From contig JBMFSH010000002.1 of assembly GCA_049967655.1 (NCBI GenBank), positions 64,001 to 128,000 of the forward strand: a stretch of 64,000 nucleotides of DNA. Direction: 5' to 3'. Below, piece by piece: positions 11,350 through 59,531 of this stretch (within the stretch, counting starts at the first letter, position 1; every line of letters starts with the position of its first letter). The notes below the pieces were generated by a model. The model saw only the letters and a program-made list of their open reading frames with translations. It did not search any database and was not told the DNA's origin. The stretch is from Acidobacteriota bacterium. Lineage in GTDB: Bacteria; Acidobacteriota; UBA4820; DSQY01. The position numbers and the translations under genes are program-made.

Positions 11350-11425
11350 GCGGGCGTAGCTCAGTTGGTAGAGCGCGAGCTTCCCAAGCTTGAGGTCGCG
11401 GGTTCGAGACCCGTCGCCCGCTCCA
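11350..11425 (+). tRNA. tRNA-Gly (CCC)
   Basis: 76 nt; acceptor GCGGGCG/CGCCCGC plus TCCA; anticodon loop TTCCCAA; GGTTCGAGA T-loop. Confidence 0.97.
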
Positions 11426-17649: not shown

Positions 17650-17725
17650 GGACCGCTAGCTCAATCGGTAGAGCAGCGGACTCTTAATCCGTTGGTTCGG
17701 GGTTCGAGTCCCCGGCGGTCCACCA
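17650..17725 (+). tRNA. tRNA-Lys (CTT)
   Basis: 76 nt; acceptor GGACCGC/GCGGTCC plus ACCA; anticodon loop CTCTTAA; GGTTCGAGT T-loop. Confidence 0.97.
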
Positions 17726-18650: not shown

Positions 18651-19769
18651 TTGACCCATGCCGCTCTTCCGCTCCAGGGAAATTTCTCTGAGCTGGGGCT
18701 TCCCGAAATCCTGGACTACCTAAAAACCACCGCCAAGACGGGCGTCCTCCTCGTGCGCAACGGCACCGTCACCAAGACCCTCCACTTCAAGAAGGGCATC
18801 GTGGTCTTTGCCACGTCCAATCTCTCCGAGGAGCGATTCGGGGAGATGCTCCTTCGCGAAGGCAAGATCGGTCGCGACCAGTTCGACGAGGCCAGCCTGC
18901 ACGTCACCCGGGGAAAGCGTCTCGGGAAAATTCTGGTGGAAATGAAGGCGATCGGCCCCAAGGACCTCTGGAACGAGGTGCGCCACCAGGTCCAGGAGAT
19001 CGCCTACAGCATTCTTGCCTGGGACTCGGGCTCCTTCCAATTTTTCGAAGGCGAGGAGAGGACGGGCGAGAACATCACCACGTCGCTGACCGTGCCGGAG
19101 CTCCTCCTGGGCGGTCTGAGGCGCATCCAAGATCGGACTCTCTTCGAGCGCCGCATGCCGACCCTCGATGTGGTCTTCGAGCGTGTTTTGCCAGCGCACC
19201 GTCCGCAGGGCCTCCATTTCGAAGATCACGAGAAGCACGTCTTCAGGCTCGTGGACGGGAAGCGGAGCGTTCAGGAAATCTGCGATCTCAGCGAAATCGG
19301 GGAGTTCGAGACCCTCAGGGCCCTTTACATCTTCTTCACCATCGGATATCTGCACGTCAAGAGCCGCAAGGATCACTTTGCTGAAGAGCAGCGAGAGCTC
19401 CAGGACCTCTCCGCCCTCATCAAGAGCTACAACGAGATGTTTTCCTTCCTCTTCCACTATCTCCTTCGCGAGGTGGGCCCCATCGCCGAGAACATCCTCG
19501 AAAAATACCTCGGTCGGCTAAAGGCGGCGCAGCCCGAAATCTATGCCAGGGTGACCCTTCGGAGCAACGGCGCCCTTTCTGAGGAGCGCCTGATCGAGAA
19601 TCTGAAGCAGATACCACGGGAGCGAGAGGCCCTCCTGGTGCAGGCCCTCAACGAGTACCTCTACTCCGCCCTCCTCGCTATCCGCCGCACGCTGGGCGCG
19701 GAGCACGAGCACCGGGTCTACGAAACCCTCAGGAATACGCGGAGGGACCTCTTCCGTGAGCCGGCCTAA
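18651..19769 (+). CDS. DUF4388 (PatA-N-like) domain protein
   Basis: LQGNFSELGLPEILDYL....KTGVL, ERFGEMLL, W..GSFQF and LVDGKRSV patterns typical of DUF4388 proteins. Confidence 0.75.
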   Translation: MTHAALPLQGNFSELGLPEILDYLKTTAKTGVLLVRNGTVTKTLHFKKGIVVFATSNLSEERFGEMLLREGKIGRDQFDEASLHVTRGKRLGKILVEMKAIGPKDLWNEVRHQVQEIAYSILAWDSGSFQFFEGEERTGENITTSLTVPELLLGGLRRIQDRTLFERRMPTLDVVFERVLPAHRPQGLHFEDHEKHVFRLVDGKRSVQEICDLSEIGEFETLRALYIFFTIGYLHVKSRKDHFAEEQRELQDLSALIKSYNEMFSFLFHYLLREVGPIAENILEKYLGRLKAAQPEIYARVTLRSNGALSEERLIENLKQIPREREALLVQALNEYLYSALLAIRRTLGAEHEHRVYETLRNTRRDLFREPA

Positions 19770-20724
19770 TCCCGCTAACACGGCGCTCCCTCCAACGATT
19801 TGGATCGTGGGCCCGACGGCGGCGGGCAAGTCGGACCTCGCCCTTGATGTTGCTCTTCGGTTCGGGGGAGAGGTGGTCTCCTGCGACTCCATGGCCGTCT
19901 ACCGGGGGCTCGACATCGGTACCGACAAACCCTCTTGGGAAGCCCGCCGCCTGGTACCCCACCACCTGATCGACGTGGCCCAACCCGGCTCCTACTTCTC
20001 CGCGGGGGCCTTTCGGAACATGGCGCTGGAGGTCATGGCCGGCATTGCAGCTCGGGGGCACCTCGCCGTGGTCGTGGGGGGAACGGGGCTTTACTACCGC
20101 GCTCTCGCCGAAGGGCTGGCGCCGCTGCCTCCCAGGGACGAGGGGCTGCGGGCACGAATCGCAGGCCGGATCGCCTCCAGGGGGCCCGAACGGGTGCACC
20201 GCCTTCTCGCCCGCCTGGACCCGGCGGCCGCTTCCCGGATCGGCATCCGCGATGTGCTCCGGATCACCAGGGCCCTGGAGGTTCGCATCCTCACCGGCCT
20301 ACCGATCTCGCGCCGATTGAGCGAGAGCCCTTTCGGCTCGGCCCCATCCTTGGGCGGCCTCAAACTTGGTTTGACGGCCCCCAGGGCCTACCTTTACACT
20401 AGGACCGATCGAAGGGTAAGGGCCATGGTGGAGGCGGGCCTTCTGGAGGAAGTCCGGCAGCTCCACTCGTCGGGACAGCTCACGGGGCCGGCCCGAAAGG
20501 CCATAGGTTACGGGGAATTGGCCGAATACCTGGAAGGTTTGATGACCTTAGAGTCGGCTGTGGTTAGGATCCAGCTCAGGTCGAGGCACCTGGTCAAACG
20601 CCAGCTGGCGTGGTTCCGCCGCGAAGACGGCATTATATGGTTTTCCGTGGACAAGGAGGCCTGGAAAAATGATGCAATGGAATTCATCAAAAGATGGCTC
20701 TCGGAAGCCGGCCGTAAACCGTGA
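19756..20724 (+). CDS. miaA: tRNA dimethylallyltransferase
   Basis: GPTAAGKS, DSMAVYRGLDIGTDKP, VGGTGLY, AIGY and KRQLAWFR motifs. Confidence 0.96.
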   Translation: MSRPNPANTALPPTIWIVGPTAAGKSDLALDVALRFGGEVVSCDSMAVYRGLDIGTDKPSWEARRLVPHHLIDVAQPGSYFSAGAFRNMALEVMAGIAARGHLAVVVGGTGLYYRALAEGLAPLPPRDEGLRARIAGRIASRGPERVHRLLARLDPAAASRIGIRDVLRITRALEVRILTGLPISRRLSESPFGSAPSLGGLKLGLTAPRAYLYTRTDRRVRAMVEAGLLEEVRQLHSSGQLTGPARKAIGYGELAEYLEGLMTLESAVVRIQLRSRHLVKRQLAWFRREDGIIWFSVDKEAWKNDAMEFIKRWLSEAGRKP

Positions 20725-21028
20725 AGTGAACATCCAGAATCAGATCCTCAACTTCGTCCGGAAGGATCGGGCCCTCATCACCATCTTCCTGGTGAGCGGC
20801 AAGAAGTTCGTGGGTCAGGTCATGGGGTTCGACCGCTACACCATCCACATCCGGGGGCGCGATTACGATCAGATCGTCTTCAAGCACGCCATCACCAACG
20901 TCTCGGTGCCCAGGCACATCATGCATAAAATGCAGGGGACCGAGGGCGAAGGCGATGCATCCCTGGAAGGGGAAATGCCGGTCGAGACCGAAGGCCTGGG
21001 CCCCGGGCCAGAGGATGAGGAGAGCTGA
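20669..21028 (+). CDS. hfq: RNA chaperone Hfq with acidic C-terminal tail
   Basis: NIQNQILN..RK...TIFLVSG..F.G....FDRY...Q.VFKHAI Sm1/Sm2 motifs; follows miaA; AAGGAGG RBS before ATG 20669. Confidence 0.88.
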   Translation: MMQWNSSKDGSRKPAVNREVNIQNQILNFVRKDRALITIFLVSGKKFVGQVMGFDRYTIHIRGRDYDQIVFKHAITNVSVPRHIMHKMQGTEGEGDASLEGEMPVETEGLGPGPEDEES

Positions 21029-21099: not shown

Positions 21100-21765
21100 G
21101 TGATCAACAAGGACCTTCTGCGCAAAGCCAGCCTTTTCGCCGACCTGGATGCCGGGCAGTTGGAGAGCATCCTCAGGGTGGCGGAAATCCGGCGCTTTGC
21201 AAAAAACACCGTCCTTCTCAGGCAAGGTGAGCGGGGCGACGCTCTCTACCTGGTGCTCTCTGGCCGCGTCAAGGCGGTGCTGGTGGCGGAGGACGGCAGG
21301 GAGGTCACCCTGGCCATGCTCGATCCGGGGGAGATGGTCGGGGAGATGGCCGTCTTCGATTCCGAGGAGACGAGGTCGGCCACGGTGATCACCGTGGAGC
21401 CTTCGGAGCTCCTCATCCTTTCGGGCAACCAGTTCAAGCAGGCTCTTCAGGAGAACCCCTCCATCGCCATCGCGGTTATCCGCACCCTCTCCCGCCGCCT
21501 GAAAGAGACCAACAACCGTATCGGGAGCCTGATCTTTCTGGACACCTACAGCCGAGTCACCCGGTACCTGCTGGATCTGGCCAAACGCCAGGGCCGGCAG
21601 CTGGCGGACGGCTCGATGGTGGTGGTGCGGCCCACCCAGCAGGAGGTCGCGCTCTACCTGGGCACCAGCCGTGAGACGGTGAGCCGCGCTCTCACAGACC
21701 TCGAACACCAGGGGCTGATCCGGCTTCTGGGTCGAAAAATCATCCTGTACAGACTCCAGCGCTAA
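21100..21765 (+). CDS. Crp/Fnr family transcriptional regulator, cAMP-receptor (CRP) type
   Basis: cNMP pocket GEMA...RSA; HTH recognition helix GTSRETVSR (CRP has GCSRETVGR); no FNR-type Cys cluster. Confidence 0.92.
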   Translation: MINKDLLRKASLFADLDAGQLESILRVAEIRRFAKNTVLLRQGERGDALYLVLSGRVKAVLVAEDGREVTLAMLDPGEMVGEMAVFDSEETRSATVITVEPSELLILSGNQFKQALQENPSIAIAVIRTLSRRLKETNNRIGSLIFLDTYSRVTRYLLDLAKRQGRQLADGSMVVVRPTQQEVALYLGTSRETVSRALTDLEHQGLIRLLGRKIILYRLQR

Positions 21766-21818
21766 TACCCGCGGCCCGTTCACGGCCCTTGCTCTTCTCC
21801 TCTTTCCGCGGGAGGCCT

Positions 21819-21834
21819 TGTGCTGGCCGTCACA
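21819..21834. promoter_or_regulatory. putative CRP-binding site upstream of the cyclase operon
   Basis: TGTGC-TGGCCG-TCACA (9/10 match to TGTGA-N6-TCACA), followed by an extended -10 TGGTACTAT at 21851-21859. Confidence 0.65.
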
Positions 21835-21881
21835 GTCCATGCGGATCCTGTGGTACTATCGTGTACATCAAGGAGGATCCC

Positions 21882-22988
21882 ATGAAGCTCCGACGGGTCG
21901 GCCGCGTGCTTGCCCTGTGCGGCTTGGTGGTTTTGGCGGCCTTCGCTCAGCGAGGCCCTTACTCCCCTTACAGGGAGAGGCTGCCCAATGGGATGGTGGA
22001 CTGGGACCAGGGCTGGATTCGAGCCGACGCGAGCGTCCCCCTGCGCAAGGGCATTCCTCCCGCCCAGGCGCTCGTGGAGGCCCAGCGGGTGGCCATGATC
22101 AAGGCCCAGGCCACGGCCCTGATGATCGCCATGCGGCTACCGGTCAACAGCGAACGCCGCCTCGAATCGTACGAAGCCCTCAAAATAAGGATCAAAGGCA
22201 TCGTGGCTGGCGGAGAGGTGGTGGACGAGGGAACGTCCGACGGGGTCTACCACATCTCCCTCAAGGTGCCCGTGAACGGAGTCCACGGCATCGTGTCGGC
22301 AGTCTCCATCGTGACCCTGCCGCCGGAGCCCCAGCCCCCGCCGAAAGAGCCCTCAGGCCGCACTGAGGCCAGGGGCAATGAGCCATCCCCCTCCGTGAAG
22401 CCTCCCCAGCAAAAGGAGGAGGCCCAGGCCGGAACCGGCCAGGAGGGGCCCTCCGACCTCTCCTCCTTCGCCTCGGTGACGGTGGACGCCACGGAGGCGG
22501 GCGTAAAGCCCGCCCTCCAGCCCCGCATCATCGACGAAAAGGGTCAGGAGGTGTATGGCCTAAAGACGGTCAAACCGCTGGTCGCCGGCACGAGGACACT
22601 GGCGAGATACGTCACGCCGGCCGTTGATGGCGCTGCCAACCCCTCCCACACCAGCTGGCTGGGGCCGGACCGCGTGGGACCTCTTCCTCTTGCCTTGATC
22701 TCGCCCCCCTGGAGGTTGCTGGCGCAATCGCAAGGAGAGCGCTCCATCGGACCAAGGGGAGCCTTGAACAGCCTAGTGGTGAAAGCCGTCAAGGCCTCGG
22801 GCACGCTCAAGGCGGACATCGTGGTGTCCGAGGAGACGGCCAGAAAGTTGCGGGAGTTGGACGCCCGCACGGGCGCTCTCTCGAACGGGCGGGTGACGGT
22901 CGTGGTCCGTTCGGACGTGGGCGGGGTGGAAAGCCGCCGGCTAAATCCGGAGGCTCAGGGCCCCTACGAACTCCTCGCCAAGAACTGA
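21882..22988 (+). CDS. exported protein, LPP20/FlgP-like
   Basis: Signal peptide; G.VDWDQGWIRA..AQRVAMIKA N-domain and VDA..AGVKPALQPRIIDEKGQEVYG C-domain, as in LPP20-type periplasmic proteins; AAGGAGG RBS. Confidence 0.6.
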   Translation: MKLRRVGRVLALCGLVVLAAFAQRGPYSPYRERLPNGMVDWDQGWIRADASVPLRKGIPPAQALVEAQRVAMIKAQATALMIAMRLPVNSERRLESYEALKIRIKGIVAGGEVVDEGTSDGVYHISLKVPVNGVHGIVSAVSIVTLPPEPQPPPKEPSGRTEARGNEPSPSVKPPQQKEEAQAGTGQEGPSDLSSFASVTVDATEAGVKPALQPRIIDEKGQEVYGLKTVKPLVAGTRTLARYVTPAVDGAANPSHTSWLGPDRVGPLPLALISPPWRLLAQSQGERSIGPRGALNSLVVKAVKASGTLKADIVVSEETARKLRELDARTGALSNGRVTVVVRSDVGGVESRRLNPEAQGPYELLAKN

Positions 22989-22994
22989 CGAGCC

Positions 22995-24863
22995 ATGCCG
23001 GTCCCCTCGCCCCCATTCCCCGCCAAGGTCTGGCGGGAGCGCCTGACGGTCGCCCTCCTGCTGGCCGTCGTAGTGGCCCTCCCTCTCGCGCTGGGGATCG
23101 CCCGAGGCGGAGAGGGCTGGACGTACGACCTGCTCCTTCGGCTCCAGGTGTGTCCGCCCTCTTCGCGCGTCCTGCTCGCCTGCATCGACGACGCCACCTA
23201 CAGGGACCTCGGAGGCCACGATCCGAACCGGGCCGAGATCGCCCAGGCCGTCGGCACCCTCTGGGCGAGGGGCGCCTCTCTCATCGGACTGGATCTCCTT
23301 TTCTGGCAGCCCAAGGAGCAGGAAGAGGCCGGGAACGAAGCCCTGGAAGCGGCCCTCTCCAAGGCCGACGTAGTCCTCGCCTCGGATCCGGCCCAGGGTT
23401 ATCTTCCCATCGGGCGCTTTCGCAGACAGGCCGTAGGGCTGGGTTCGGTTGATCTCGTCACGGACTCCGACGGCATTCTCCGCAGCCTGCCCGGCCCCTT
23501 CTTTGAGCCTTCGCCGGGAGGCCTCCGAATCAAGGCACTCCCGTTCGCCCTGGCGTGCGCCCTCCTGGAGTGGTTTCCCAATGGAGCACCGCCGGTCAGC
23601 ATGGAGCGCAGCGGAATCTCGTTCGGCCCGCACCTCTTCGCCATGCGGGGCGGACGCTGGTGGATCCCCTACTGCGGCGGTGACGGAACGCTGCCGCGCG
23701 TCTCCTTTATCGATGTGCTGAGGAATTCGCGGACTCTCCCCTCGATGAAGGGCCGCATCGTCCTCGTCGGCAACACCCGGCCGAGCGAGCACGACTACTT
23801 CTCCGTCCCCCTGCCCTCCGCGGTTCCTCCGCAGAGCGGCTTCAACGAGATCTCGACTCACTCCATGTCGGGCGTCGAGGTGCACGGGCAGGCCCTGTCG
23901 GCGCTCCTCTTGGGCCGCTCCATCCTTCCCATCTCCTCAGCCCAGCGGTGGGCCGCCTTCGCGCTCCTCGCCTCCGTGGGAACGCTCCTGGTGCTCCTGC
24001 CGCTGAAGCCTATCCCCTCCCTCGTGGCGTGGCTCTCGGCGGGAGCCGCCCTCGCCGCCACGGGCGTCGCAGCCATCCGATCGGGCCACGTCCTGCCCAT
24101 GTTCAGCCTGGGGCTGGGATGGATCGCCTACGCTGGCGCCTCCTTCGCCTATCAGCGCTACAGCGACTTCCGCCAGAAGCGCGCCGTGGAGCGGCTCTTC
24201 TCCCGATACGTCTCCCCCAACATCGCCAGCAAGCTCCTTCGCCAGCCGGACCTCGTGCAGTTGGGCGGGAGGCGAAAGGAGCTGACCATCCTCTTCTCCG
24301 ATATCAGGGGATTCACCACCCTCTCGGAGCAGATTCCCCCGGAGCAGGTGAGCTCCCTGCTGAACGATTACTTCACCGAGATGACCCGCATCCTGTTCGA
24401 GTACGACGGCACCCTCGACAAGTTCATCGGCGACGCCATCCTGGCCTTTTTCGGAGACCCCGTGAACCAGGAGGACCATTCGGCCCGCGCCCTGGCCTGC
24501 GCCGTGGCCATGCAGGAGCGGGCGGCCTCGCTGAGGGCCCGCTTCCAAGCCGAGGGCAAGCCGCCCCTCCACATGGGCGTGGCGGTCCATACCGGGCCCG
24601 TGGTGGTGGGCAACAACGGTTCGGAGAACAACTTCGTCTATACCGTCATCGGCGACACCGTGAACCTCACCTCGCGCCTCCAAGGGCTGGCCCAGCAGGA
24701 CGACGTCATCGTGACCGCTTCCACGGCGGAACGGATTCCCGGTTTCAATGAGCGCTACGAGAACGAGAGGCTCGATCCCGTCCGGGTCAAGGGAAAGGCT
24801 GAACCCATCGAGATCGTACGTGTGAAGGGACTCAAGAACGAGGAGGCTTCCCATGAACACTAA
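22995..24863 (+). CDS. CHASE2-domain membrane adenylate cyclase (class III)
   Basis: CHASE2 motifs (IGLDLLF, DSDGILR, GRIVLVG, MSGVEVHG), three TM helices, then FSRYVSP and cyclase motifs FSDIRGFT, DKFIGDA, YTVIGDTVNLTSRLQ, VKGK; Lys/Thr specificity residues indicate ATP as substrate. Confidence 0.93.
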   Translation: MPVPSPPFPAKVWRERLTVALLLAVVVALPLALGIARGGEGWTYDLLLRLQVCPPSSRVLLACIDDATYRDLGGHDPNRAEIAQAVGTLWARGASLIGLDLLFWQPKEQEEAGNEALEAALSKADVVLASDPAQGYLPIGRFRRQAVGLGSVDLVTDSDGILRSLPGPFFEPSPGGLRIKALPFALACALLEWFPNGAPPVSMERSGISFGPHLFAMRGGRWWIPYCGGDGTLPRVSFIDVLRNSRTLPSMKGRIVLVGNTRPSEHDYFSVPLPSAVPPQSGFNEISTHSMSGVEVHGQALSALLLGRSILPISSAQRWAAFALLASVGTLLVLLPLKPIPSLVAWLSAGAALAATGVAAIRSGHVLPMFSLGLGWIAYAGASFAYQRYSDFRQKRAVERLFSRYVSPNIASKLLRQPDLVQLGGRRKELTILFSDIRGFTTLSEQIPPEQVSSLLNDYFTEMTRILFEYDGTLDKFIGDAILAFFGDPVNQEDHSARALACAVAMQERAASLRARFQAEGKPPLHMGVAVHTGPVVVGNNGSENNFVYTVIGDTVNLTSRLQGLAQQDDVIVTASTAERIPGFNERYENERLDPVRVKGKAEPIEIVRVKGLKNEEASHEH

Positions 24864-25932
24864 ATCGCTGGCCCTCTGCGCACTCCTGGGAGTGGCGACG
24901 GCTCTGGGCGTCCACGCGCAGCAGACCGTTACGGCCACCGGCACCGCCGCGATCCTGAACAAGGACGCCGCGCAGGCGCGGGACAGGGCCGTGGAAAGCG
25001 CCCTTCGCGCGGCAGTCGAGCGCGTGGTGGGCACGATGGTGGATTCGGAGAGTCTGGTCAAGAACAACGACCTGATCTCCGACAAGATCTACACCCAGAC
25101 GAAGGGCTACATCTCCAACTACACCATCCTCTCCGAAACGCCGGACCTGGAGGACAACATCTACTCGGTGAAGGTGGAGGCCACGGTAAAGGAGGGCGAC
25201 CTCGCCGATGACCTGAACTCCCTGGGCGTCCTCATGCACCGGATGAACATGCCCCGGGTGGCCGTGGCCCTGCGGGAGCAGGACAGCACCGCCTCCGACC
25301 AGATCCTCAGGATGCTCAAGGACAAAGGATTCCTGGTGGTGGATACGGGGGAGAGCGCCAGGTCCCAGGGGTTCTGGGGAATGCCCGAGGGCCAGCAGGC
25401 CGATCTCATGAAGAAGTACGGCGCCGAGGTCGTGGTGCTGGGCAGCGCCAGCGGGCAGGCCGGCTCTAACGTGGGCCGCTCCAGCCTCATTTCCTACCAG
25501 GCCAACGTGAGTCTCAAGGCCCTCAAGACCGATACCCACGAACTGCTGGGCACGGCCTCCGGCAGCGGCACCGCCGTGAACGTGGGCGACGCGGGCCTGG
25601 CCCAGGCCCTTCGGCAGGCCTCCACGGTCGCCGGCAACGACCTGATCAGACAGATCACCAACCAGTGGGCCAAGGAGGCCTCCTCGACGCGCATGCTGAC
25701 GCTGGTGCTCCGCGGGGTGACGCCGGCCCGAGCCGAAGAGGTGGCCCGGCGCCTTCGCGAGGAGGGGCGGGGGATCCAGGACGTCATCGTCAGGGAATCC
25801 TCCGGACAGGAGGCCACCCTGGACGTCTCCATGCAGGGCGACGCGGCGGCCCTCGCGCAGGAGCTCACCAAGGTGTTCCCCAAGGCCAGGATCCTCTCCC
25901 AGACCGCCAACCGTTTGACAGCCTCACTGTGA
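24853..25932 (+). CDS. exported protein with FlgT N-terminal-like domain
   Basis: Signal peptide; VTATGTAAI..DAAQARDRAVESALRAAVERVVGT.V.SES.V pattern of FlgT_N-type domains, followed by a CsgG/TolB-N-like alpha/beta domain. Confidence 0.65.
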   Translation: MNTKSLALCALLGVATALGVHAQQTVTATGTAAILNKDAAQARDRAVESALRAAVERVVGTMVDSESLVKNNDLISDKIYTQTKGYISNYTILSETPDLEDNIYSVKVEATVKEGDLADDLNSLGVLMHRMNMPRVAVALREQDSTASDQILRMLKDKGFLVVDTGESARSQGFWGMPEGQQADLMKKYGAEVVVLGSASGQAGSNVGRSSLISYQANVSLKALKTDTHELLGTASGSGTAVNVGDAGLAQALRQASTVAGNDLIRQITNQWAKEASSTRMLTLVLRGVTPARAEEVARRLREEGRGIQDVIVRESSGQEATLDVSMQGDAAALAQELTKVFPKARILSQTANRLTASL

Positions 25933-25966
25933 GGTCGGTATGCTCGAACCCAAGGAGGAAAGAACC

Positions 25967-26854
25967 ATGAGGCGCACGCTCCTTTTCGTGGTGTTGTTCC
26001 TCTCGATGGCCGCAGCGGCCGTGAGCACCTTCGCCCAAAAGCCCCGCATCGCGGTTCTGAAGATCCGCAACGATTCCGCGTACGGCTCGGCCCGCCTTGG
26101 GCCCGCCATCCAGGACTGGCTCGTGGAGGGCCTCGTCCAGTCAGGCCAATTCCACGTGGTGGAGAGAAAGGAGCTCGAATCCATTCTGAACGAGCAGGGC
26201 CTATCCCTCAGCGGCGCGGTGGACGATAAGACGGCCATCCAGGTAGGGAAGCTGCTGGGATGCCAGCTCGTGGTGCTCGGGGCCGTCACGGACTTCTCCA
26301 GGCACCAATCGGGGGGCCACGGCGTCTGGGGCATCGGCTTCAGCGTGGTCGTCACGAAGGCCGAGGGCACCGTCAACATCAGGTTGGTCAACACGACGAC
26401 GGGCGAAATCGTATGGACGGGCTCGGAGAAGGGCGAGCACTCCTTCAGCAACGTGGACGTGGCTGGCTTCGGCGGCGGCGTGGATTGGGACGAGTCCCAG
26501 GCGCGTCAGATTTTCGAGCCGGCGGTGACCGCCCTCGTCCAGAAGATCGTCAGTGCGGCGGGGAACATCAAGGAGAGCCTGGGCTCCGTGGCGGTCCTCT
26601 CGGGCAAGGTGGCCAAGGTCGACGAGGGCCGGGTCTACCTGAACATCGGGAGCGTGGACGGCGTCAAGGAGGGCGACCAGTACACCCTGTACCACGTGGG
26701 TGAGACCATCACCGACCCCGACACGGGCAAGGTCCTCGGCCAGGAGAAATCCCGCATCGGCACGGTGAGCGTGACCAAGGTGCTGGGCGATCACCTCTCC
26801 ATGGCCGTGGCCAACGGCGGCCCCGTGCAAGTGGGAGACGTGGTCCAGAAATAG
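25967..26854 (+). CDS. CsgG/HfaB family protein with C-terminal FlgT_C-like domain
   Basis: KPRIAV, F.VVERKEL..IL.EQ, GKLLG...GAVTDF and RLVNTTTGEI (CsgG family); GKVAKV..RVYLNIG..DGVK.GD...ITDPDTGKVLG (FlgT_C-like). Confidence 0.8.
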   Translation: MRRTLLFVVLFLSMAAAAVSTFAQKPRIAVLKIRNDSAYGSARLGPAIQDWLVEGLVQSGQFHVVERKELESILNEQGLSLSGAVDDKTAIQVGKLLGCQLVVLGAVTDFSRHQSGGHGVWGIGFSVVVTKAEGTVNIRLVNTTTGEIVWTGSEKGEHSFSNVDVAGFGGGVDWDESQARQIFEPAVTALVQKIVSAAGNIKESLGSVAVLSGKVAKVDEGRVYLNIGSVDGVKEGDQYTLYHVGETITDPDTGKVLGQEKSRIGTVSVTKVLGDHLSMAVANGGPVQVGDVVQK

Positions 26855-36643: not shown

Positions 36644-36988
36644 TGGTGGAGGCGGCGGGAGTCGAACCCGCGTCCGGAAATGCCAGCCAAGGCAGCTTCT
36701 ACGCGCGTAGCCGGTTCCCAGGGTTTCGCTTCCCGCCAATGGAGCCGGCAATTCGTCGGGTCGCTAGCCCTCTGCATCTTAGCCGGCGCGGCCGGGGCGA
36801 GCCGCGCCGGAGCATCCCGCTAGCGTCGTCCTTGAAAGGCCGCGGGCCCTCCCCTCAAGGACGTGGCAGCTTACGCCGCCAGAGCCAAGTTATTGTTGGC
36901 AGTTGTGGGTTTCCGGTCGTTTTACGAGAGCCCGGAACTCGGCGCGCGACCACCTCCCGCACATCCCCGTCGAGACCGTTTCGCCCCC
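36644..36988 (-). ncRNA. ssrA: transfer-messenger RNA (tmRNA)
   Basis: 5' GGGGGCG pairs with 3' CGCCTCC-ACCA including the G3-U pair; GGTTCGACT T-arm; tag frame at 36900-36871 encodes ANNNLALAA*. Confidence 0.97.
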
Positions 36989-58178: not shown

Positions 58179-59531
58179 ATGAGATCGAGCACCGTCCCGA
58201 ACGGACCAACGGCCGGGGAAGGCCGGGCCTTTCCCCTCCTCCTCGTAGCTCTGGCTCTTTTCTCGACCTGCGCCGCCGTTGCGGCCCAGACCCCTCCGCC
58301 CGCTCCTCCCGAGAAGCAGATCACGGGGGTCATCACATCGAGCGGCTTCACCCAGCTCTCCATCGCCATTCCGCCGAGCAAGACGGAGGCCACGACGGCC
58401 GTCCAGGCCCAGGAGATCCTCTCCACGGTGACGGGCGATCTCGAGTTCTCGGGCTACTTCCAGCTCGTGGACCCCTCCCTTTTCGCCGGGATGAATCCGA
58501 ACGACACCAAGGTCGACTACGATGCATGGACGGGGATGAAGGCGGACTATCTCCTCCTCACCAACGTCTACGCCTCCGGGAACCAGCTCACCCTCGAAGG
58601 CCGGCTCTATGACATCAAGCGGAAGGAGATGGTGACGGGCAAGCGCATCAAGGGGCCCGCCCAGGACGTGCGGGTCCTGGCCCACAACCTCTCCTCCGTG
58701 ATCCTCGACTACCTCTTCGGCGCTGGGAGCTTCCCCACCAGCCAGATCCTCTTCACGTCGCACCTGGCCACCACCGAGGACATCTTTCTCTGCGACTACG
58801 ACGGGAAGAACATCCTCCGCCTCACGGCCATGGGCCAGCTCAACGTGACCCCCGACGTGAACCCCCAGGGCAACCTCATCGTCTTCACCTCCATCCTGAA
58901 AGACAGGCAGGAGATCTTCCTGCTGGACCGCCAGGGGCATCGGAGGAAGCTCTACGGCGACGGCGAGGGACTCAACTCCAACCCGCGGTTCTCCCACGAC
59001 GGCAAGACCGTGGCCTTCTGCTCTTCCCGGTCAGGAAACCCCGACATCTGGACCATCGGCGTGGACGGCAAGAATTTGACCCGGCTCACCTTCTCCTACG
59101 CCATCGACACCGCGCCCTGCTGGTCGCCCGATGACCAGCACATCGCCTTTACCTCCGATCGCTCCGGCTCTCCCCAGATCTATATCATGGACAGGGACGG
59201 CGCCAACGTGCGGCGGTTGAGTCCACCGGGCAGCGGGCGTTGCGATCAGCCCATCTGGTCTCCCCGCGGCGACAAGATCGCCTACAGTTGCTTCAAGGAC
59301 GGCCACTTCAACATCGCCGTGGCGGACCTGACCACCGGCGAGGTCACCTTTCTCACCCACGGGGAGGGAGACAACGAGGCGCCCTCCTGGTCGCCCGACG
59401 GGCGGTACCTGGCCTTCGCCAGCAACCGCTCCGGAAGCTATCAGATCTACATCATGCGTTGGGACGGGTCGGGAGTGACCCGAATCACAAACCAGCCGGA
59501 CTGCTATTCGCCCTGCTGGTTCAAGGGCTAA
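58179..59531 (+). CDS. tolB: Tol-Pal beta-propeller protein TolB
   Basis: Signal peptide, TolB_N (DLEFSGYF, RLYD), PD40 repeats (P.WSPDG..IAF.SDRSG.PQIY). Confidence 0.88.
   Translation: MRSSTVPNGPTAGEGRAFPLLLVALALFSTCAAVAAQTPPPAPPEKQITGVITSSGFTQLSIAIPPSKTEATTAVQAQEILSTVTGDLEFSGYFQLVDPSLFAGMNPNDTKVDYDAWTGMKADYLLLTNVYASGNQLTLEGRLYDIKRKEMVTGKRIKGPAQDVRVLAHNLSSVILDYLFGAGSFPTSQILFTSHLATTEDIFLCDYDGKNILRLTAMGQLNVTPDVNPQGNLIVFTSILKDRQEIFLLDRQGHRRKLYGDGEGLNSNPRFSHDGKTVAFCSSRSGNPDIWTIGVDGKNLTRLTFSYAIDTAPCWSPDDQHIAFTSDRSGSPQIYIMDRDGANVRRLSPPGSGRCDQPIWSPRGDKIAYSCFKDGHFNIAVADLTTGEVTFLTHGEGDNEAPSWSPDGRYLAFASNRSGSYQIYIMRWDGSGVTRITNQPDCYSPCWFKG

Follow-up and report, generated by a model that had tools for sequence, protein, structure and literature searches.

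Which signal does a membrane-bound adenylate cyclase answer to when it is encoded among exported proteins? The question is raised by a locus at positions 21100-26854 of a 64,000-nucleotide (nt) stretch, referred to below as the window, of contig JBMFSH010000002.1 (assembly GCA_049967655.1) from an Acidobacteriota bacterium. The locus comprises genes for a CRP-family regulator, an exported protein (A), a class III adenylate cyclase with a CHASE2 sensor domain and two further exported proteins (B and C), separated in this order by 116, 6, -11 and 34 nt. The coordinates of the open reading frames (ORFs) bear out the original prediction of five co-oriented genes, all on the plus strand, with the last four tightly packed. 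The five genes, their gaps and the catalytic residues of the cyclase are real, and the core of the locus is the pair formed by gene A and the CHASE2 cyclase gene, not a five-gene unit. The reading favoured here, held with moderate confidence, is that a short tail of A co-occurs with this type of CHASE2 domain and likely binds it, so that the level of cyclic AMP (cAMP) would be set by the state of a module made of A, B and C.

Gene A (21882-22988, plus strand; 368 amino acids, aa) belongs to a family that occurs in two forms, one ending at the last strand of its second domain (D2) and the other extended by a tail with the consensus GG[IV]E[GS]. The protein studied here is of the tailed form, the motif G347-G-V-E-S351 (22920-22934, plus strand) following the last D2 strand. 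To relate the tail to the cyclase, loci were sampled outside the host family irrespective of the tail, and all A genes that were near-complete in the retrieved loci were scored. The Desulfobacterota sample consisted of 80 regions for 112 listed matches, near-full-length and higher-scoring ones being chosen; in Fibrobacterota, 30 of 37 matches had loci, and in Planctomycetota 11 of 30 loci, those with two-domain matches, were scored. Six genes at the ends of contigs or loci (one tailed, five untailed) were set aside. When the phylum samples were pooled, a CHASE2 gene lay directly downstream of 10 of 13 tailed A genes, as against none of 116 untailed ones. The individual figures for tailed and untailed genes, respectively, were 5/5 and 0/8 in Acidobacteriota outside the host family, 2/2 and 0/75 in Desulfobacterota and 3/6 and 0/4 in Planctomycetota; the 29 untailed genes of Fibrobacterota had no such neighbour. 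Each of the three tailed exceptions has a matching cyclase elsewhere in its genome. Within the host family, CHASE2 follows tailed A directly in 17 of 17 cases. A scan of species genomes with a DNA pattern for the tail returned 85 loci, 9 of them unrelated and 76 of the A family (three duplicate genomes had been counted already). CHASE2 is the next gene in 72 of these 76, one of them called by hand; of the other four, three are truncated at sequence ends and one is a true exception. Most of the pattern-scan loci fall in one Desulfobacterota-centred clade.

The association also holds where the two genes are not neighbours. Five genomes carry a tailed A without an adjacent CHASE2 gene, and a full-length matching CHASE2 cyclase is encoded elsewhere in all five; the eight Acidobacteriota whose A is untailed show no match to a profile of A-linked CHASE2 domains at an E value of 1e-28. 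Of the 301 Acidobacteriota genomes, 35 have an A-family match and 25 match the CHASE2 profile with at least 150 bits, a score also reached by 3 of 301 Desulfobacterota and 5 of 251 Planctomycetota genomes. All genomes at this score have a tailed A, the tail having been inspected directly save in G002, G011 and G015, for which it was deduced from the length of the profile match; most of them lie in or near the training set of the profile, and the informative cases at genome level are the five tailed genomes without adjacent CHASE2, plus G339. In two tailed Planctomycetota the CHASE2 genes are adjacent but more divergent. Co-occurrence of tail and cyclase in three phyla is the robust result, and the core association, in gene order as in genome content, is that of tailed A with the cyclase. 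The gene combination was thus met in phyla other than that of the host, as the original prediction required, and the proposed functional tie between exported proteins and cyclase counts as supported, with only tailed A tracking the cyclase.

The motif lies a median of 14 residues before the stop codon, and all four glycine codons are used in it (104 genes). Since synonymous codons vary freely, the tail is conserved as protein and not as DNA. In a tree of the A core computed without the tail, the untailed protein of G083 is sister to the tailed one of G068, from the same genus (support 97), and untailed G105 falls together with tailed G149 (support 91); 3 to 5 changes of the tail label are needed in this tree, which was made by a quick method with a midpoint root and with one short row dropped. 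Tail and cyclase are absent together on several separate branches.

What kind of protein carries the tail? The A protein itself matches no Pfam or NCBIfam model; LPP20 is matched by 23 of 100 aligned members of its family, for which 596 relatives were retrieved from 1.84 billion representatives. In a protein atlas, A-type clusters are unnamed or labelled LPP20 only. An AlphaFold2 (AF2) model (predicted local distance difference test, pLDDT, 83) matches Treponema pallidum Tp0624 (5JIR) over 217 aligned residues with Z 20.7, a root-mean-square deviation of 2.6 and a Foldseek E value of 5e-13; the next match is Lpp20 (Z 10.4). On this model, A is predicted to consist of an Lpp20/SHS2 domain followed by the D2 fold of Tp0624, a D1-D2-like arrangement. 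No OmpA domain was matched in A, which ends about 25 residues past D2, and the tail has no secondary structure in the monomer model (pLDDT 59-76). Some members of the A family (P0077, P0085, P0061 and P0090) are joined in one chain to FlgT_N domains and, by weak matches, to CsgG/FlgO-like ones. When the profiles of tailed A and B were compared, the match was weak (probability 28%), and the wider A-family profile matches the N-terminal domain of B.

The cyclase gene (22995-24863, plus strand; 622 aa) encodes a protein with Pfam matches to CHASE2 and Guanylate_cyc, laid out as a transmembrane segment, CHASE2, hydrophobic segments and the catalytic domain. Intact class III motifs had been predicted, including the lysine and threonine that specify adenosine triphosphate (ATP), and all the residues were located: D436 and D480, which we take to bind metal, N557 and R561, presumed to act on the transition state, and K476 and T550, presumed to select ATP, together with K601. 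The sequence thus has the two metal-binding Asp, the transition-state Asn/Arg and the ATP-specifying Lys and Thr/Asp of class III enzymes, and the product is predicted to be an inner-membrane class III adenylate cyclase. Position 269 of A-linked CHASE2 domains is Phe or Tyr in 7 of 7 held-out sequences, as against 1 of 17 others; it may be a contact residue or merely mark the clade. A profile search of the PDB with the CHASE2 region found no CHASE2 chain and no solved relative. Prediction of a 1:1 complex of A with the CHASE2 ectodomain, run with alignments, scored 0.00 in both runs, which speaks neither for nor against binding. The A-linked cyclases of Desulfobacterota (L064-L143, about 703 aa) are some 80-90 residues longer than those of Acidobacteriota. 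Genome G051 has two further CHASE2 cyclase genes (L042, 118-4805; L043, 2027-4737); TPR/barrel-like and FecR genes lie before one of them, and a gene for an exported protein without a Pfam match before the other. Here a FecR gene occupies, before a second CHASE2 gene, the slot taken elsewhere by A, and the upstream partner seems to vary with the CHASE2 clade.

Genes B (24853-25932, plus strand; 359 aa) and C (25967-26854, plus strand; 295 aa, with an alternative start at 25940) lie downstream of the cyclase gene. The products of A, B and C all begin with signal-peptide-like N-termini, judged by eye and hydropathy, which agrees with the three exported proteins predicted around the cyclase. B matches FlgT_N in Pfam (E 9e-8) and is predicted to contain an SHS2/FlgT_N domain, then a domain resembling CsgG, PelC, TolB_N and the middle of FlgT, then a ferredoxin-like domain; its structure match is 9HMF_C (E 4e-8), and it reaches 42 bits with the NCBIfam LipL46 model (cut-off 400). 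C, the sole CsgG match in the host genome, consists of CsgG-like (Pfam CsgG, E 6e-31) and FlgT_C-like (FlgT_C, E 5e-7) domains. The LPP20, FlgT-N and CsgG/FlgT-C types assigned to the three proteins in the original prediction are upheld by these Pfam and structure-model matches. The idea that FlgT is simply split between two genes is not: structure searches placed A with Tp0624 D1-D2 and Lpp20 and B with SHS2/FlgT_N, and gave no clean split, B having N-terminal, middle-like and ferredoxin-like domains and C middle-like and C-terminal ones. B and C thus have part of their FlgT domains in common and are not the halves of a single protein. A sigma-70-like site at 25915-25944, just before gene C, has 10 of 12 matches (1 found, 0.6 expected) and could allow separate transcription of C.

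The expected non-flagellar context is supported, neither FlgH nor flagellin, the two flagellar markers searched, being found in the 99.3%-complete host genome (G000); a flagellar role for the locus was rejected. A curli role was rejected as well, C reaching 23 bits with the NCBIfam CsgG equivalog (cut-off 505), far below the cut-off. None of csgA, csgB, csgE and csgF is among the neighbours of the locus, no genome-wide search having been made for them.

B and C follow the A family as a whole. Among sampled Desulfobacterota genomes, B-family genes occur in 20 of 23 with A-family genes, as against 2 of 63 without, and B or C is often found beside untailed A. B-C-pgsA forms a separate locus in seven other Acidobacteriota genomes; B-C is kept in three genomes without the cyclase, G073 having CRP-A-B-C without it; and five Acidobacteriota genomes have hfq-A-pgsA only, full-length B not being found in them. 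B and C look like FlgT/CsgG-fold members of a wider non-flagellar module that accompanies A, tailed or not. The absences are nested, cyclase and tail being absent while A-B-C remain, and B being absent while A remains, a pattern that fits a cyclase added to an older envelope module through the tail of A. A TPR-SLH protein is encoded directly beside A in an Acidobacteriota family (L046, 8742-10160) and in one Desulfobacterota locus (L247, 4891-6084), and may be another component of the module.

Does the regulator belong to the system? The CRP gene (21100-21765, plus strand; 221 aa) encodes a protein with Pfam matches PF00027 (cNMP) and PF13545 (HTH_Crp_2), which among NCBIfam models scores highest with CRP (153 bits, cut-off 266). 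Residues G81-E82, R92-S93 and T137-N138, which by analogy with E. coli CRP would line the cAMP pocket, are present, as is the presumed recognition helix R191-E192-x3-R196. Upstream of A lie a CRP-box-like site, TGTGC-N6-TCACA (21819-21834, plus strand), with one mismatch to the CRP consensus, and an extended -10-like element, TGgTACTAT (21851-21859, plus strand). Of 16 upstream regions in the host family, eight have a box with one mismatch (shuffle fraction below 0.01 each) and two a box with two mismatches, these being the two genomes in which the CRP gene has moved; the box is absent (at least three mismatches) in six, including G012, where no CRP ortholog was found. From box centre to -10 element the distance is 27.5 nt in three genomes, 29.5 in one and 47.5 in five; the two main spacings are 20 bp apart, and the spacings of class II and class I CRP promoters likewise differ by 20 bp. 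The putative box before A suggests feedback on the locus. Genome-wide, 18 sites with at most one mismatch were found in 3.1 megabases, which by our own arithmetic is no more than chance, and so no CRP regulon is claimed. Two perfect consensus boxes lie 54 nt apart on a 1.8-kilobase (kb) contig of the host genome (C101, 1212 and 1266), which makes it a candidate CRP target. In the window, one-mismatch boxes at 59474 and 61398 flank an ORF of 562 aa, recN-like by eye, the latter preceding a long exported-looking ORF. Rfam matches in the window are a transfer-messenger RNA (36644-36988, minus strand) and transfer RNA genes at 11350-11422 and 17650-17722, with no other.

Among 18 host-family loci, CRP is adjacent in 12, is missing in two for which the sequence was available, and cannot be scored in four that end too early. 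Five genomes with A and the cyclase were tested for the CRP ortholog: G007 and G004 encode it at another place, and none was found in G012, G051 or G068. CRP is thus a lineage-specific part. B is present in 23 of 24 host-family genomes, which shows descent only, because the whole block from miaA-hfq to pgsA is syntenic, rpsA also being included; host-family synteny was rejected as evidence for a unit, housekeeping genes lying in the same block. DUF4388-miaA-hfq (window 18651-21028) is retained before A in several families of Acidobacteriota, also where the cyclase, B and C are absent. The neighbourhood survey suggested with the original prediction kept the cyclase with tailed A and detached the rest, CRP being lineage-specific and B-C travelling with A whether tailed or not; a fixed five-gene system is not supported.

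Taken together, A would work with B and C, of FlgT/CsgG fold, as a non-flagellar envelope module, and the tail would be an add-on that plugs a cyclase into it. Unstructured in the monomer model, the tail would bind the periplasmic CHASE2 domain; such direct binding is likely, we infer, from the co-occurrence. Engagement of A with B and C may control the availability of the tail, and the cyclase would then read A as free or engaged. The best guess for the cue is the assembly state of the envelope module. In the host lineage, cAMP-CRP may bind the box before A and adjust transcription of A, the cyclase, B and C, closing a feedback loop. More tentatively, and as a possibility to which we give rather less credence, the CHASE2 domain of this clade would be a peptide receptor for the GG[IV]E[GS] tail, through which the cell reads envelope assembly via cAMP.

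Several observations weigh against this reading. One untailed A of Desulfobacterota (L247) has a CHASE2 cyclase gene directly upstream. The pattern scan picks tailed genes by design, mostly from one lineage; A-linked sequences served to train the CHASE2 profile, whose distant held-out tests are G339, G733, G757, G776, G793 and G961 only; and the independent events are few (the 3 to 5 changes in the tree), kin inflating all counts. The Fibrobacterota and Planctomycetota loci cover only 1.5 kb on each side. In the host genome, three other cyclase loci could feed CRP, and in five family genomes the CRP gene is adjacent while the box is absent. Lastly, in Tp0624 the linker at the position of the tail adds a strand to domain 1, and the tail may likewise act within A (PMC5104382; the papers cited here by PMC number are represented by excerpts).

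These points leave room for other explanations. One that we consider unlikely, though worth keeping in mind, makes A a dedicated subunit that folds or stabilises the cyclase, the tail assisting assembly or protection of a CHASE2 domain whose input would be a small molecule; B and C would take no part in signalling. It draws on the five Acidobacteriota in which B-C has moved to another place and A remains with the cyclase, and on the pattern loci: of the 37 that extend 3 kb or more in both directions, only 14 have B or C within 4 kb. Full-length B is nevertheless encoded elsewhere in all five tested genomes without B nearby, though B accompanies most A-family genomes anyway, and A persists without tail and cyclase in eight Acidobacteriota and most A-family Desulfobacterota; its main job is therefore not the cyclase.

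That the tail folds onto domain 1 of A itself, with A, B and C as mere cAMP-CRP targets sharing an operon with the cyclase, as smc02177/smc02178 do in Sinorhizobium, seems improbable. The linker strand of Tp0624 (L2; PMC5104382), the CRP box before A and the Clr-target neighbours of cyaD1 in Sinorhizobium, which are dispensable for signal perception (PMC5498481), all fit it. It leaves unexplained, however, why genomes without the cyclase have the A gene but no tail, and why tail and cyclase are both kept when unlinked; three of the tested genomes with A and the cyclase, besides, yielded no CRP ortholog.

We regard as very doubtful the fixed five-gene system in which A, B and C would form one periplasmic ring that signals as a whole through CHASE2 to the adjacent CRP. 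The host family preserves the gene order, the arrangement C-B-A-cyclase is met again in Desulfobacterota, and the middle domain of B matches the ring formers PelC, CsgG and FlgT (Z 9.7-11.3). Host-family synteny, however, equally includes miaA, hfq, pgsA and rpsA, CRP and B-C are separable, and the fold of the B middle domain is also that of TolB and LpoB, which are not known to form rings. A by-product of gene packing, with the tail codons serving as ribosome-binding site or overlap for the cyclase gene 6 nt away, can be dismissed as hardly credible: Gly-Glu codons can spell a purine-rich site, but the free synonymous variation, the distance of the motif from the stop codon and its retention where the cyclase gene lies elsewhere led to its rejection.

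How does the pairing of tailed A with a CHASE2 cyclase relate to known systems? The closest comparison is with NsrA, the cyclases CyaD1, CyaD2 and CyaK, and Clr of Sinorhizobium meliloti, which share with the present locus a CHASE2 class III cyclase and a CRP-family reader (PMC13001267, PMC5498481, PMC7529298). Envelope proteins under a CRP-type box are also shared, as is an input dependent on another envelope protein, a dependence suggested here by co-occurrence. Cyclase, CRP reader and box are all found in the host genome but not in all carriers. The Clr box is TGTT-N8-AACA, as against the TGTG-type site here; the five genes have no Pfam or NCBIfam match to a beta-barrel receptor or FecR, the search being of these five genes, and the candidate partner is instead a protein of Tp0624/Lpp20 fold with a dedicated tail. 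The excerpts of the Sinorhizobium papers do not say what touches the CHASE2 domain (PMC13001267, PMC5498481, PMC7529298). The operons in which FecR or MtxA is combined with CHASE2 likewise encode an exported protein directly before the CHASE2 enzyme, as in L042 and with mtxA, which precedes a CHASE2 cyclase gene; the partner fold is different, and the excerpt describes no tail motif (PMC4439547).

Tp0624 shares with the predicted A model the tandem D1-D2 fold over 217 residues and is exported; it differs in having linker L2 and an OmpA-like domain where A has a short tail, and the excerpt mentions no link to a cyclase. D1-D2 was described as a functional unit without known function, also found without the OmpA domain (PMC5104382). 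With the Vibrio H-ring proteins FlgT, FlgO and FlgP and the Campylobacter FlgP basal disk, the locus shares the SHS2 fold in A and B (PMC12222027), and also a FlgT middle-like fold in B and C and FlgT_C in C. In contrast to the H-ring, there is no single-chain FlgT with N-terminal, middle and C-terminal domains, and FlgH and flagellin were not found. The curli channel CsgG has its Pfam domain in common with C, which differs in an additional FlgT_C domain and in lacking a lipoprotein-type cysteine, and there are no curli genes in the locus. By the features compared, the locus is neither an H-ring nor a curli system. No description of the A-cyclase pair or of the tail was found in the literature searched, which left most subscription journals and supplements outside its scope; this is apparently an undescribed form of partner-dependent CHASE2 signalling.

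CHASE2 is a common sensor domain with largely unknown inputs, for which the five-residue tail offers a concrete and cheap candidate ligand. Through the tail, the Tp0624 D1-D2 fold, so far without a function, and a non-flagellar FlgT-like module that is widespread become linked to an output that can be measured. If the proposed binding is true, CHASE2 would have a defined ligand and the Tp0624 D1-D2 family a function.

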